From assembly GCA_030603365.1 (NCBI GenBank), contig JAUVXV010000002.1, positions 64,001-128,000 on the forward strand: a stretch of 64,000 nt of DNA. Reading direction: 5' to 3'. Position numbers and translations under genes: made by a program. The DNA is from Candidatus Heimdallarchaeota archaeon. GTDB lineage: Archaea; Asgardarchaeota; Heimdallarchaeia; Heimdallarchaeales; Heimdallarchaeaceae. This document shows positions 25,067 through 43,552 of this stretch, piece by piece; the first letter of the stretch is position 1, and each line of letters begins with the position of its first letter. The notes beneath the pieces are model-generated. The model saw only the letters and a list, made by a program, of their open reading frames with translations. It did no database searches and was not told the DNA's origin.

Positions 25067-25118
25067 TTTTCTCTACTTTAAATATGATTCTCATAATTAT
25101 GTCTATAGAGCAGACATG
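25067..25118 (+). promoter_or_regulatory. Cluster-type promoter 1
   Basis: ttttctctac-tttaaatatg-att...gacATG, related to elements at 26971, 30141 and 35971. Confidence 0.55.
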
Positions 25119-26957
25119 GCTAACATTCATATTCGAACATCCATCGTTTTAATGTTAATCAGTATCATTACTCTCGGAAAGGTTAATTATGCTGGTCTAG
25201 GCATGGGTCTGCTCACCCACTCGTATAACTCATCACACAACACACAGGAGGGGGTGCTTTCGCAGACACTAGGTGAAGAGCTTATCTTCAACTACACAGA
25301 CTCTTTTTCTGAAAGCACCTTCCTACTTTCCTGGTCAAGTTTGAATTTATCGATTTATAACGAGTTCACGATTAATTTTATGATTGAAGGAGATACTTCC
25401 TCAAAAGCAGGAATAACTATAACTATTATGATCGATTCCACAGAGATAGATTTCCTTATCGAAAAAATCCATCAGCATCCTTATACCTATTCACTCTCAA
25501 GAGCTTTCTATTTTGAGAACCCAACAATTGATGATTTCAACCTCTCTATAACATTTGCAGGTCAGGCAACTTATGGAAATAGTGGTTCGCTAATTATTTT
25601 AGCTAATAGTTCCATCTCACATCTTAACTCAGTTAACTTAGCTGAATTTGAACAAATTCTAGATGTCTCTCCCAGTAGTTTGCTCTTTGAAGGAAACATG
25701 GTAGGATTAAGAGAGATTTCTGCCTATACAGCACTAAATTTTAGTCTTAATAGCTCATATCTAGTAGACTTAGATATCTCTTTTCAAGCAAGTGATTTTC
25801 AATCTTTTACCAATGAATTAATTCTACTCTCAAATTCTCAAGAATTAGCTAGAAGCTCTTTTGACGAAGATATGCTTAATGAGATCAATTTTCAATTTGA
25901 AGTACAAGAAGGATTTGTTTTTCTTCAACTTCTCTTTCAGATAGAGGTTTCCTCTGATATAATTGGTATCAGTAATATTTCTATAACTGCTCGTGCTTTT
26001 GAAAACGCTTTTAGTCAAGATATTTTTTATCAATTTGAATGGATTGATATTGTAGATGAAACAATAAACCTTGATGTTTTAAAGCCATCATCTGAGCAAA
26101 ATAATCATGTTTTGAATATCTCGCTTTATTGTAGTTTTGAAGGAACTACTATTCTAGATGGGATAGATTATGATCTATACATGGGAATTCAAAAAGTAGT
26201 ATCAGGAATTATTTCTGTGGCACAACAGTCTGCAGATATTCAACTTATCCAAGAATTAACATATACGGATAGTTATCAAGAAGATTTAACAATTGAATTC
26301 TCTGCAGAAAATACAGGGTCTGGCACTATTATACTTTACAATTCTTCGTCAGTTGGCATTCAAAATATCGATCATATTGACAATGAAACCTACACTAAGG
26401 TACTTGAAGAAGAAAGCACTTTTAAAACACCTACATATGGTTCCATTTCTAAGAATTACTATGATGTAATCTTTGTAGAAAATGCTTCTTTATCCTTCAA
26501 AATGGAATTTCTTATGGAATTAACAGCTTCTGAATCAGCATTCCAAAGTATTGCCCTATCAATTTATGTTGATGATGTTGCTATTACAACTAAATCAATA
26601 TCTGAAGAGGGAGATGTTCATATTATTTTTGATGTCCAGCTAAATGAAGAGTTTAACGAAATTAAATTTACTTTAAATATTCTAGGTCGAGGATCAACTA
26701 TTACTTTTAAGAATATGCGATTCACTCTTCTTCAAAATACAGAAGAATCTCCTAATCCACTTTCTCCTGAAGAAGGTATAGATATTCCATTCTTCAAAGT
26801 TCCCAAGAACATCTTTCTTGGAATTTTTGTACTCTTTGATTGTTGGTTAGTTATGGGAATAATACTTCGAATCTATAAAGGTCGCAAATTCAGGAAGAAA
26901 CAACTAACTGAAAACGACGAATTTATTTTAGAAATAGTTCAACTGTCCCAAGATTAG
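25116..26957 (+). CDS. Type I membrane surface protein with beta-sandwich ectodomain
   Basis: Signal-like N-terminus, many N-x-S/T sequons, beta-rich, one C-terminal TM and basic tail. Confidence 0.7.
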   Translation: MANIHIRTSIVLMLISIITLGKVNYAGLGMGLLTHSYNSSHNTQEGVLSQTLGEELIFNYTDSFSESTFLLSWSSLNLSIYNEFTINFMIEGDTSSKAGITITIMIDSTEIDFLIEKIHQHPYTYSLSRAFYFENPTIDDFNLSITFAGQATYGNSGSLIILANSSISHLNSVNLAEFEQILDVSPSSLLFEGNMVGLREISAYTALNFSLNSSYLVDLDISFQASDFQSFTNELILLSNSQELARSSFDEDMLNEINFQFEVQEGFVFLQLLFQIEVSSDIIGISNISITARAFENAFSQDIFYQFEWIDIVDETINLDVLKPSSEQNNHVLNISLYCSFEGTTILDGIDYDLYMGIQKVVSGIISVAQQSADIQLIQELTYTDSYQEDLTIEFSAENTGSGTIILYNSSSVGIQNIDHIDNETYTKVLEEESTFKTPTYGSISKNYYDVIFVENASLSFKMEFLMELTASESAFQSIALSIYVDDVAITTKSISEEGDVHIIFDVQLNEEFNEIKFTLNILGRGSTITFKNMRFTLLQNTEESPNPLSPEEGIDIPFFKVPKNIFLGIFVLFDCWLVMGIILRIYKGRKFRKKQLTENDEFILEIVQLSQD

Positions 26958-43200: not shown

Positions 43201-43552
43201 TCTAGATAGTGAAGGTAGAATTTTAGTGAATAGAGATGTAACATTCCAATACTTAGCATCTAATGGATCAATTATTGCATCAGAAGATATAGCTACTGAT
43301 TACAATGGAAAAATCTTAATTGATCTCAATACTAATAGTAATGCTGAAAACGCAGAAGAAGTATATGTGGTCTTCAAGGGTGAAAAATACTATAATTCTT
43401 GTGATATTCTACTAATAATCAGTGATTTCATAGTTAAGATGCAACAAGGCTTACTTGATCCATATTTCTTTGTCTACAGTTCTGCAGCAGCACTTTTTAT
43501 AATCGTACTAACTCTTGGTTCCAGTTATCTCCTGAAAAAGAGAAAAAGATGA
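37205..43552 (+). CDS. Giant Ig-like repeat surface protein / adhesin (2115 aa)
   Basis: Signal peptide; many ~90-aa repeats (G.P....V......TD.NG.A.....G.Y.....F.G...Y..S); C-terminal TM and KKRKR. Confidence 0.88.
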   Translation: MRDLRRVIFLFVLLLFVPQPVTQLVFNSLIEPSSMASDSSYIIEYNPETDYIFEDKIIRITPISIEEYEESTASNSPSPPHLSPGIYPSLTSAAGDASTLRRGDILDASALSEYELLGYVPVDRGYHYWYDLQQVAGDEDSSSSSITENKIAVEFNSIVDIDVMAFSFNLSDISIPIANVINFYLADNLNDYQNDYLMFSEISFHTYNSQKNNPNAPLLFTFWNHPLTTPIDNQITADTPYYVILESSADFMLQTSSDLTGSDDNSVYTFESSLWNEQTGIDIDMEIYTGSLVQSSSLGADGASNLLYDSLFTTGVNLKIVANYYDSSLLYDSSSDFLDIIILDSFNPEFLYLSTPPTAEYNDQIQLIARVENSHHQPLRGELIDFYVSDDNQTWSLLTQASSEEDGYAILSYTILESSGTKYFKIILDLLAAYSSTTQEKETILVSAPQINCVFGSAVGSHNLALFQLAVQVQDNDGTPIVDHIVLFFMQGMIDPIFTYTNETGWATTANGYIGWNFGFYPNSYWVSMSMDAGLYNYPSTTYGDINISKNDISIQAQETLQGIWNEPLDISLIFTDAESDLISNLNYEVVVFNNETGLNTSLGLYQTNVNGEGLISFTEGFFEPGEYMVFIKVNALNYIYLEKAIPLLIESDQATIYVNIVEDVSYIYGSSVHLEVYVTDHFGNPLEDIQVLVHVSLPNYIDFWDDIHVLNTNSSGYAVFDLILSMNVGDVLNILFTTAGYYNGDILYYKGATPFVAYFTCVPAPTNFVDLVDISCTNQETITISGRLFSNGNPISSQTVCISILGEQFFVITDSNGYFTLTYQLNEGGTIQVDIFYDSSTNYLDTDQTIYLYCDPCTITLTGDDIYHDTADPVTFIVLIESAYGTNPQGVAVDFYWYDGENWIYLDTVYSDVFGVVIFTPGISFPLGNYLWKAEVALSEDWEQAEVIKILKVGIDTSIVLYTPSTVEYHETITLTAYVTDEPGNPILVEVAFYINQIYIGSATTDIDGYAVLTWFVDLAPGDYEIVAQMAATGMFLSSSNNAYVTIEKTSSYISCDDEFIFYSESADLEIHLYTTTSNISTVYVTVNITDILEEQLLTDSNGLAIWSIALLDPGVYTVRIYFMGNSFYYSSELLITLQVDKMPTTINFTAPNQEYEPIYEVTGYINDQFYQPIEGVTLVLYVNGTEVATTTSDVFGYFEFVLNLNPGIYVIEIEYSGDDYYLSANGQKTVYIWKIETSVQSDVVWEDMTVTVETLLLDSNNQPISNQLVFFYLDGIYVDHTLTNSSGYAFIILNGITPGIYELEIVFSGTTIYSSSSQTIVIDQDKLQTEMIVEIFGGIYGTETTTIEVYLTSEGNPLVGKNVVLIINGQNYAGVTNSSGYLLISLDTFTNAGTYSLSVDFLGDAVYTAVNIGTSFYISKAESQITLQFNYLDYLPILSGVLITPTALAGVDIFIYDGVNYLDTVQTDALGNFEFFLLLSAGTYQIEVEFEGDENHLGFRKIIQVQIYKTTVQIDSPASLNQTYGAETSFIIYVEDVLGNSLAISIIIKLDGIYYATIITNASGYATVILTADIEAGNHILTLEFQGNDDYYQTSQNISIYTKYEIILDDLQTLPSMYGDEGLVTGELNNYGGNLPLVEVTLIINGEAYTTTIDPSGSFIFVIDSDLPTGTYSAILIIEETTAVVYFEHSFMVERTKGQATINLDYDERTFNDISDVVGSVEFDSVGLEGVVIVIYINGNEMGTLVTDINGQFVIPGSWLEHAPGLYTLKITALIDNANIAVTSNEFALELIRDSATIEISYVDTKVEQELQFNIQLTDSQHNNLPYYSITITVNGTEYELISNGAGVVLFTLLLDCAGVLYILLTGLETTYYNSFAEAYEVEIERTQTIINVAERQIPYNDSKGLAVQLKSEFGNAIANQSLLIMVDSNVNTPVTDENGTVYINIEEYALGNHSLFIDFADTENYLGIKLYANMEIVPQETQIIIVYDESQVYLQLLDSEGRILVNRDVTFQYLASNGSIIASEDIATDYNGKILIDLNTNSNAENAEEVYVVFKGEKYYNSCDILLIISDFIVKMQQGLLDPYFFVYSSAAALFIIVLTLGSSYLLKKRKR

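Follow-up and report, generated by a model that had tools for sequence, protein, structure and literature searches.

The 64-kb stretch of DNA analyzed here (G000:C15:64001-128000, referred to below as the window) belongs to a 3.65-Mb, 17-contig metagenome-assembled genome of a Candidatus Heimdallarchaeota archaeon. Labels beginning with G, f, L, and C denote genomes, families, loci, and contigs, respectively, and G000 is a member of family f1. We describe a cluster of nine open reading frames, named g1 to g9, which are all encoded on the plus strand (window positions 25116 to 43552) and combine surface and membrane proteins with DNA-processing enzymes. The cluster opens with g1 (25116-26957), which encodes a type-I membrane glycoprotein-like surface protein (613 aa), followed by g2 (27014-28441; 475 aa), a protein with an N-terminal transmembrane (TM) hairpin, and g3 (28438-29094; 218 aa), a polytopic membrane protein with five or six TM helices. 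The next products are a RecA/RadB/KaiC-class ATPase (g4, 29084-30130; 348 aa), a PD-(D/E)xK-fold protein of MmcB-like shape that is a probable nuclease (g5, 30188-30664; 158 aa), and a putative pseudo-ATPase with a HerA/VirB4 fold (g6, 30645-33764; 1,039 aa). A DExH helicase paralog of the Ski2/Hel308-like type (g7, 33757-35955; 732 aa) and a divergent RadA paralog (g8, 36013-37203; 396 aa) precede the last gene, g9 (37205-43552; 2,115 aa), which encodes a giant immunoglobulin (Ig)-like, adhesin-like surface protein. A first-pass annotation of the same DNA had named the nine products as surface, membrane, RadB-like, PD-(D/E)xK-like, HerA/VirB4-like, Ski2/Hel308-like, and RadA proteins, and these identities held in domain, fold, and TM checks. 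Functional statements in this report rest on gene context, folds, and motifs, with predicted structures for g5 and g6; family hits for the window proteins were obtained with Pfam, NCBIfam, PADLOC, and PHROG models.

The co-oriented genes overlap by 4 nt (g2/g3, at 28438), 11 nt (g3/g4, at 29084), 20 nt (g5/g6, at 30645), and 8 nt (g6/g7, at 33757), and g8 and g9 are 1 nt apart (at 37205), exactly at the coordinates given by the first-pass annotation. The remaining gaps, g1/g2, g4/g5, and g7/g8, measure 56 to 57 nt each (26958-27013, 30131-30187, and 35956-36012). A TATA-like A/T box lies approximately 25 to 35 nt before the starts of g1, g2, g5, and g8, all of which share the start context GACATG, and this context is kept in several orthologous loci. 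The putative g1 promoter, read directly from the sequence (25040..25115, plus strand), has the same layout. Because promoter-like boxes fill the three 56- to 57-nt gaps and the region 5' of g1, the layout suggests four candidate transcription units (g1, g2-g4, g5-g7, and g8-g9). The layout may be the general form in this organism and was not counted as evidence of a regulon.

GC content is even throughout the window, with no step at the cluster, and no tRNA gene was found in the 64 kb. Library scans of the cluster and window proteins matched no integrase, relaxase, primase, capsid, or terminase family, and no gene of the first four kinds had been evident in the first-pass annotation either. 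The flanking genes are ordinary and encode a major facilitator superfamily transporter, pyruvate:ferredoxin oxidoreductase (POR) subunits, solute-binding proteins, a histidine kinase, and coenzyme A-enzyme activase-like proteins. An integrated conjugative or viral element could supply a VirB4-like fold together with membrane and surface proteins, and generic PHROG hits (helicase, UvsX-like, and DnaB-like) were obtained. However, the hallmark families went unmatched, the window has even GC content and no tRNA gene, the same flanks are kept across the genus, and the module is single copy with host-like divergence. We therefore regard a mobile origin as extremely unlikely, and the earlier inference that the system is host encoded stands.

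The two genes at the cluster ends encode the surface proteins. The g1 protein has a signal-like N-terminal segment, a large ectodomain, a C-terminal TM helix (residues 562-580), and a basic tail, and it had no match in Pfam, NCBIfam, PADLOC, or PHROG. The g9 protein also has a signal-like N terminus and a C-terminal TM anchor (residues 2083-2101), with the Pfam domains Big_1, Big_3_5, CarboxypepD_reg, MG4, Invasin_D3, and SpaA. NxS/T sequons number 12 in g1 (2.0 per 100 aa) and 22 in g9 (1.0 per 100 aa), compared with 0 to 0.3 for the cytosolic proteins of the cluster. Within the genus, g1, g2, and g9 are the most diverged products (38 to 43% identity; 38 to 40% for g1 and 43% for full-length g9), and g3, g5, g7, and g8 are the least diverged (61 to 75%), similar to the POR genes; in G045, a closed genome of another genus, g9 identity falls to 29%. 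The surface proteins thus evolve faster than the core and are richer in sequons, and both the fast evolution and the potential glycosylation sites would be as expected of recognition proteins. The g1 domain recurs in two giant proteins of G000. We considered whether silent cassettes might feed antigenic variation of g9 through gene conversion and rejected this, because G000 has no further DNA-level copy of g9.

The g2 protein begins with a TM hairpin (residues 41-59 and 67-85) followed by a domain of approximately 390 aa, which should be cytoplasmic because basic residues flank both sides of the hairpin. No match to g2 was found in the four model libraries, and the ESM Atlas gave no usable hit; orthologs are present in four genera of the family. 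The g3 family comprises only Heimdallarchaeota-labeled records among 5.8e9 clusters, and its members are invariably found no more than 7 kb from g5 and g6. No relative of g3 was found among PDB sequences in a profile search, VirB6/TrwI included, and no Pfam family matched consistently; an assignment to Yip1 was not adopted, since only one of eight members gave that match. An Atlas feature search returned the family's own Asgard clusters, along with subthreshold leads to Peptidase_M50B/DUF3267. One g3-like protein, from G397 (L083:13191-13853), carries an HExxH motif (HETAH) that the other g3 proteins lack; the ancestors of g3 may have been membrane metalloprotease-like proteins whose active site was lost. 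Second g3 paralogs occur in G044 (L088:10489-13154, G044:C4), beside a g1-like type-I protein (E value, 1e-52), and in G045 (L086:12945-15245, G045:C1), beside a protein with a signal and a C-terminal TM helix. Neither locus has DNA-processing genes nearby, which points to g1 and g3 as an independent pair. Short conserved motifs end g3 (DPFG, in f1 members) and g8 [TEFA(S/T)LE] and lie near the end of g2 (IPPPP); they are possible docking motifs.

Among the RecA-class proteins, g4 matched the RadB model TIGR02237 (4e-13) with 49.7 bits, below its equivalog cutoff of 172, and AAA_25 (4e-5), likewise under the cutoff. Its N-terminal half is variable and of low complexity. Walker A is canonical (GxxxxGKT) in most orthologs and reads GPPGSAKT in G000, and the Walker B motif IIIDH is conserved. 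With its RadB score under the cutoff, g4 is assignable to the RecA/RadB/KaiC class only. The g3-g4 overlap recurs in G045 and in G081 (family f7), g4 being translationally coupled to g3, and the g4 counterpart of G081 matched Rad51 (6e-12). The helicase g7 matched DEAD (3e-23) and Helicase_C (8e-10) in Pfam, with Hel308 as the best family. The match to the Hel308 model NF040935 covers only model positions 37 to 461 and reached 162 bits against a cutoff of 1,200, so that it is not a full-length equivalog match extending over the ratchet and domain 5. The protein carries GKT at residue 37, DEFH at residue 141, a SWIM-type CxC...CxH finger (CTCQNKHSNFICKH) at residues 529 to 542, and a C-terminal region resembling a helix-turn-helix.

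The RadA paralog g8 matched Rad51 (PF08423, 5e-53), and its N-terminal region, corresponding to the helix-hairpin-helix (HhH)-type domain, aligns with that of RadA. Its Walker A (GAPQSGKT) and Walker B (LLIVDS) motifs are intact, and it has inserts and an acidic C-terminal extension. It scored below the RadA equivalog cutoffs, with 219 versus 259 bits for NF003301 and 197 versus 361 bits for TIGR02236. G000 has three other RadA genes with scores above the NCBIfam cutoff (429, 346, and 330 bits), and contig C17 encodes a Hel308 that scores higher than g7 (639 bits). Because these better copies sit elsewhere in G000, g7 and g8 are dedicated extra paralogs and not the housekeeping genes. A quick maximum-likelihood tree of RadA placed g8 and the copies from G041 and G045 in one clade (Shimodaira-Hasegawa-like approximate likelihood ratio test support, 100), sister to two divergent paralogs from one f7 genome and apart from other RadA proteins. 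Among the genomes sampled, the g8-type clade is confined to f1 and f7. Duplications of RadA in Heimdallarchaeia have been noted previously, in a study that removed highly divergent sequences (PMC12722695).

The predicted structure of g5 (mean predicted local distance difference test score [pLDDT], 89) has a PD-(D/E)xK fold. Its best PDB match was 3dnx (TM-score, 0.68/0.73; E value, 3e-6), and the next ones were PD-(D/E)xK proteins that included Hjc, NucS, and Cas4; 3dnx is the structure of DUF1052/PF06319 (PMC3424549), a family now named MmcB-like. The best fold matches in the ESM Atlas were MmcB-like clusters, with a TM-score of 0.78 to one in which PF06319 is present in 100% of the members. 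Pfam gave no match for g5 at E values up to 0.01, PF06319 included. Residues E25, D49, E64, E66, and H73 are invariant, with Glu in place of Lys at the third catalytic position (E-A-E). This variant of the PD-(D/E)xK motif is known from BamHI, and g5 is a probable nuclease on the basis of its modeled fold.

The g6 protein consists of an N-terminal beta-rich domain, an ATPase-like region (approximately residues 230-610), a winged helix (approximately residues 625-720), and a long, helical, acidic tail. Its predicted structure (pLDDT, 70) has a HerA/VirB4 fold, closest to VirB4, DndH (DndH-C), TrwB, and HerA. A family profile compared with 1.8 billion representatives retrieved only 26 proteins, the distant ones being true HerA. 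Profile searches of PDB sequences with g5 and g6 returned nothing meaningful, and the Pfam models DUF87, HerA_C, and NurA matched none of the nine proteins. In f1, the Walker A site reads LLAGDKKTRE; the f7 and f28 homologs have no GK[ST], and their site differs again in the alignments. Because Walker A is lost in all lineages, g6 cannot be a CedB-like motor, and its sequence marks it as a pseudo-ATPase, presumably a scaffold. The G000 protein has no TM segment, and the homolog in G307 (f28) opens with a TM hairpin. Some six-frame matches to g6 (in G041, G042, and several f7 genomes) or to g5 (in G005 and G009) contain one in-frame stop (TAA, TAG, or TGA), which may arise at the boundary where g5 and g6 overlap or may indicate split genes.

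A HerA-like scaffold, a nuclease, a helicase, and membrane sensors could together constitute a defense against viruses or plasmids, comparable to SIR2-HerA, DUF4297-HerA, Dnd, or Hachiman. Structurally, g6 is near DndH-C and the HerA of defense complexes, pairs of HerA and a nuclease are typical of defense systems (as judged from PDB titles), and g7 matched HamB models of Hachiman with up to 122 bits. The HamB match is generic for Ski2-like helicases, however, and no HamA (DUF1837) was found in any neighbor; PADLOC otherwise gave only generic helicase hits and weak mad8 matches (g6, E value of 0.0024; g8, E value of 9e-5). The module is single copy, family wide, vertically inherited, and fixed in position within the genus, unlike patchy defense islands, and it includes a recombinase paralog, giant adhesin-like proteins, and a g6 without an active P-loop. 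A defensive role is accordingly improbable.

The order u1-g1...g9-POR, where u1 is the gene upstream of g1, is kept in four species of the genus with identities of about 40 to 85%. In genome G041, an insertion of 8 kb separates g7 from g8, and G044 retains g2 to g7. In G045, the order is g9-g2-g3-g4-g5-g6-g7-g1, with the g8-type RadA 3.8 kb upstream; both surface genes have switched cluster ends, g1 lying at the opposite end and g9 upstream of g2, yet both were retained. G025 (f2, probably Kariarchaeaceae, judging from the label of a g3 homolog) has two convergent operons. The first encodes a type-I protein, a 2-TM protein, a g3-like protein, a 200-aa protein, an XPD-like helicase, and a g5-like protein; the second encodes a g6-like protein, a 557-aa protein, and a Hef-like helicase. 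The corresponding locus of G081 (f7) encodes an XPD-like helicase, a g9-like giant, a type-I protein, a 2-TM protein, g3-like and g4-like proteins, Hef (with DEAD, ERCC4, and HhH domains), a g6-like protein (hhalign, 95%), and g5. In G307, which belongs to another class, one operon encodes a 6-TM protein, a 1,417-aa g6 homolog (hhalign, 98%), a g5-like protein, and a type-I protein, and an SF2 (superfamily 2) helicase and a g9-like giant adjoin it. A 7.2-kb contig from a distant lineage (L064, GCA_976553735.1) carries g5-like, g6-like (1,142 aa), and g7-like genes in the f1 order, with 24 to 35% identity.

The helicase slot is thus occupied by Hel308-like g7 in f1 and by Hef-like proteins in f2 and f7. 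The latter are extra paralogs, since a second Hef lies elsewhere in those genomes; G000 and G045 have one Hef each, away from the module. The first-pass annotation counted RadA as a member of the cluster, and this holds only for two genera, in which it is adjacent to the module; in a third genus it lies 3.8 kb off, and in f7 it lies 25 kb off. On the three points that the first-pass annotation had named as able to overturn it (variable gene order in relatives, the lack of separate housekeeping radA and hel308 genes, and identity with a known conjugative or proviral element), the results all came out in its favor, gene order being conserved in the genus and in G045.

We found g3 in 25 of the 30 genomes of f1, in the single f2 genome, and in all 12 of f7; f3 gave weak hits in 2 of 12 genomes, and none were obtained in f4 (0/3), f5 (0/22), or f6 (0/2). 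Full-length g6 has a coinciding distribution (26/30 in f1, 1/1 in f2, and 11/12 in f7; 0/12 in f3 and 0/3 in f4), with only weak, HerA-length hits in f5 and f6. Both families are confined to Asgard records in the collections searched. The g5 gene, present in the same proportions as g6 in f1, f2, f7, f3, and f4 (26/30, 1/1, 11/12, 0/12, and 0/3), occurs also in 20 of 22 f5 genomes and 2 of 2 f6 genomes. It is single copy in f1, f2, f5, f6, and f7 and extends to a few further families of Asgard archaea; none of 135 f20 genomes yielded it. In four genomes of the genus, g3, g5, and g6 were not found, and one of these (G015) holds a g8 ortholog (73% identity). The absence may be an assembly gap, because a POR orthologue at genus-level identity is also lacking in all four (best matches of 41 to 43%, and none in G019, versus 68 to 73% elsewhere in the genus).

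Wherever the single-copy genes g3, g5, and g6 share a contig in a genome of the three families, no more than 7 kb separates them. The chance expectation for such clustering in a 3.5-Mb genome is, by our own arithmetic, (14/3500)^2, or approximately 2e-5 per genome; because the three genes stay together across three families, the clustering is more than chance. The module is chromosomal, vertically inherited, and nonessential; it is single copy, its divergence resembles that of host genes, and it bears no mobile-element or defense hallmarks.

This conservation bears on whether the cluster merely juxtaposes at least two unrelated units, one for the envelope (g1, g2, g3, g4, and g9) and one for DNA (g5, g6, g7, and g8), kept adjacent without coupling by inherited synteny or shared regulation. 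Such a division would agree with the promoter-like gaps that split the cluster in four, with the g1-like/g3-like pairs found elsewhere without DNA genes, with g5 occurring without g3 and g6 in f5, and with the flanking POR genes being equally syntenic within the genus. It does not account for an association that survives inversion and reshuffling in at least four lineages in which the flanks are not kept, nor for the coinciding phyletic patterns of g3 and g6, the coupling of RecA-class g4 to g3, or the G307 operon, in which a g6-like protein with a TM hairpin is encoded between 6-TM and g5-like proteins. Because it has survived inversions, gene swaps, and fusions while the flanks changed, the association of envelope proteins and DNA enzymes is not an accident of local synteny, and independent units are unlikely. 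The link of surface and membrane proteins to DNA enzymes drawn by the first-pass annotation thus persists through independent rearrangements in other genera, other families, and one other class.

We conclude that the module places a DNA-processing complex at the cell envelope: g2, g3, and g4 overlap, the g6-like protein is fused to TM helices in G307, and the g6 fold is near those of the membrane-associated proteins VirB4, DndH, and TrwB. By analogy, the complex may serve contact-linked DNA exchange or import coupled to recombination, similar in logic to the Ups and Ced systems and built from different proteins; we put this forward tentatively, with somewhat less than even confidence. We favor it because it accounts for all parts and has a functional precedent in Sulfolobales. 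The polytopic g3 and the hairpin protein g2 would form a membrane platform on which the ATPase g4 docks. Through its winged helix, g6 would hold DNA at this platform, as a ring or a scaffold, for processing by the MmcB-like nuclease g5 and the DExH helicase g7, and the divergent RadA g8 would pair the product with the chromosome. Outside the cell, g1 and the giant Ig-like g9 could supply contact or recognition. Energy would come from g4, g7, or both, and not from g6. The first-pass annotation had joined adhesion, DNA passage, and strand invasion in one machine; of this, the host-encoded nature and the dedicated RadA are upheld, and nothing in the data shows DNA passage or cell-cell contact.

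Several findings count against this proposal. The g6 protein is without a P-loop in all lineages, while CedB and VirB4 are thought to power DNA transfer (PMC9905601). No homology of g2 or g3 to CedA, VirB6, VirB2, or pilins was demonstrable by profile, Pfam, or Atlas searches. Neither a pilin nor a prepilin peptidase nor a pilus-assembly or secretion ATPase had a Pfam match in the cluster. A 2-TM protein occupies the g2 position in f2 and f7, and its homology to g2 was not demonstrable (hhalign probability of <2%); hhalign comparisons of the f1 profiles of g1 and g2 with their positional counterparts in G025 and G081, and of g2 with the N terminus of the G307 g6 fusion, were not significant. 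The f2 and f7 counterparts of g1 and g2 thus appear to be only positional analogs. The surface/membrane submodule seems to have an independent life, because g1-like/g3-like pairs occur away from DNA genes. Lastly, g5 is spread more widely than the membrane genes; its f5 neighbors include an MrfA-like helicase, XPD, and RadA and neither g3 nor g6, and this fits a repair nuclease that the membrane parts joined later. Relatives of Hef, XPD, Hel308, and MmcB are repair proteins that need no transfer, so that g5 and its helicase partners (Hel308-like, Hef-like, XPD-like, and MrfA-like) point as much to the repair of crosslinks or forks.

These points lead to the main competing explanation, namely, membrane-tethered repair of the cell's own chromosome (crosslinks, bulky adducts, or collapsed forks) without DNA transfer. 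Here, g5, the SF2 helicase, the nearby XPD, and the RadA paralog would carry out the repair, g6 would hold the damage at the g2/g3/g4 platform, and the surface proteins would be sensors or merely coregulated envelope proteins. Mitomycin C damage is the target of MmcB in Caulobacter and of MrfAB in Bacillus, and crosslinks are the target of HELQ, FANCM, and FANCJ in eukaryotes. The MmcB-like fold of g5, its neighbors in different lineages (Hel308-like, Hef, XPD-like, and MrfA-like helicases and RadA), its occurrence without g3 and g6 in f5 and f6, and the loss of motor function in g6 would all be in keeping with repair, as would the binding of RAD51 paralogs by HELQ (PMC13623763). The only XPD-like gene per genome lies in or near the module or g5 in 5 of 5 genomes examined, from four families (G000:C15:50601-52337, which is 38 kb upstream of g1; G045:C1:295688-297424; L079:3542-5380; and L036:9443-11206). 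In G066 (f5; L077/L078), g5 adjoins a 921-aa helicase with an MrfA Zn-binding (MZB) domain (L077:15150-17915) and is 4 to 6 kb from XPD-like and RadA genes and from a gene for a 1,605-aa surface protein; such surroundings in f5 may represent an ancestral repair neighborhood without g3 and g6. Repair offers no role, however, for two conserved, fast-evolving surface proteins that stay attached to the module in f1, f7, and f28, g9-like giants adjoining it in G081 and G307 as well. It leaves unexplained a polytopic membrane protein coupled to a RecA-like ATPase, and all genomes examined have separate housekeeping RadA, Hel308, and Hef. We consider repair a possible explanation, though a doubtful one.

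A stronger form of the exchange proposal is that the module is a self-contained parasexual apparatus for contact-dependent exchange of chromosomal DNA, built independently of type IV secretion systems (T4SS) and Ced, having adhesins, a membrane platform, a DNA-holding pseudo-ATPase ring, a nuclease, and a helicase of its own along with a RadA paralog specialized for incoming DNA. The division of labor would be analogous, and not orthologous, to the split between Rad51 and Dmc1. This we regard as speculative, and on balance doubtful. If DNA is indeed moved or captured at the envelope and fed to a dedicated recombinase, the module would be the first system for DNA exchange put forward in Asgard archaea and a testable candidate for genome mixing in the lineage closest to eukaryotes. 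It would then bear on the origin of sex and meiosis, a gap discussed previously (PMC12722695 and PMC7524546). If repair is the correct explanation, the module would be a dedicated membrane-tethered pathway of eukaryote-type repair paralogs (Hel308/HELQ-like, Hef/FANCM-like, and Rad51 family, with the XPD family nearby). In addition, the cluster defines four protein families without annotation (g1, g2, g3, and g6), sets a catalytically dead HerA/VirB4-like protein in context for the first time, and offers a lead to the function of divergent RadA sequences that phylogenetic studies discard (PMC12722695).

Some neighboring genes of the window deserve mention. The u1 gene (23713-24975, minus strand) encodes a 420-aa protein with approximately five TM helices and without a family match. 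It is divergent from g1 over a 140-bp spacer, adjoins g1 throughout the genus, and is tandemly duplicated in G041; it was not found beside the module in G045 and may be an accessory component particular to this lineage. Immediately following the POR genes, four successive small paralogs (147 to 190 aa) are encoded at 46011-48366 (plus strand). The first, d3, is a multi-TM protein with 32 to 38% identity to the next three, and d3-like copies also lie 3' of POR in G003 and G006. Farther downstream (49989-60286, minus strand) is an unusual five-fold array of ABC (ATP-binding cassette) transporter binding protein genes, whose products are tandem paralogs of 656 to 673 aa; SBP_bac_5 domains were found in the two tested.

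One close comparison is with Ced of Sulfolobales and Ted of Thermoproteales, DNA import systems that are domesticated T4SS and contain three kinds of protein (VirB4-like, polytopic membrane, and 2-TM), Ted loci often including HerA and Rad50 (PMC9905601). The module shares the VirB4/HerA-like fold of CedB and TedB through g6, which has lost the Walker A motif and so is without the intact ATPase site that could power translocation. With 475 aa and a cytoplasmic domain of 390 aa, g2 is not pilin sized like VirB2, CedA1, or TedC. The module also differs in bringing a nuclease, a helicase, a RecA-like ATPase, RadA, and adhesin-like proteins together in one locus.

In Sulfolobales, the operon for the Ups pili has downstream nuclease and helicase genes. 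The module resembles it in encoding a putative apparatus for contact beside DNA-processing enzymes. Ups makes contact through type IV pili, whereas membrane-anchored Ig-like and type-I proteins would do so here. The role of Ups and Ced in community DNA repair by homologous recombination has been described (PMC11868833 and PMC11823120). A further comparison is bacterial natural competence, where incoming DNA is handled by a membrane channel, an SF2-type ATPase on the inner side of the membrane, and dedicated recombination mediators together with a RecA-fold helicase. The parts of that system include ComEC, ComFA, DprA, RecA, and RadA/Sms. No homolog of ComEC, ComEA, or DprA was found in a Pfam scan of the cluster, and its components are of archaeal or eukaryotic type (RadA and Ski2-like). 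A role of RadA/Sms in competence has been described (PMC6755099).

Among HerA-nuclease pairs (HerA-NurA, which resects DNA ends, and the defense complexes SIR2-HerA and DUF4297-HerA), a small nuclease gene is likewise coupled to a HerA-fold gene, as g5 is to g6 through the 20-nt overlap, and DUF4297 is, according to PDB titles, also a HerA partner of the PD-(D/E)xK type. However, g6 is twice as large and has a degenerate Walker A, a winged helix-turn-helix, and a long helical tail; g5 is MmcB-like and not NurA, SIR2, or DUF4297, and the neighbors are not Mre11 or Rad50. The MmcB-like family and the MrfA-MrfB pair are similar in the fold of g5 (TM-score, 0.68 to 0.78), in the logic of a nuclease with an SF2 helicase, and in the position of g5 beside an MrfA-like helicase in f5. 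They differ in that the Pfam model misses g5, which has Glu for Lys at the third catalytic position. The family, as described, is mostly alphaproteobacterial (PMC3424549).

The encoding of a Hel308-family helicase with a RadA/Rad51-family recombinase and a second RecA-fold paralog, g4, recalls HELQ of eukaryotes together with RAD51 and BCDX2, a complex of RAD51 paralogs (PMC13623763), except that g7 and g8 are lineage-specific divergent paralogs and not orthologs. With respect to g7, the SWIM-type finger is also reminiscent of SWS1-type partners of RAD51 paralogs, and the Hachiman-like match discussed above is generic. Full-text literature searches found no description of the module, and, as the first-pass annotation had remarked, our comparison identified no match among named systems. 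All the recognizable parts come from known superfamilies; assembled at one envelope-linked locus, they form an apparently undescribed system.

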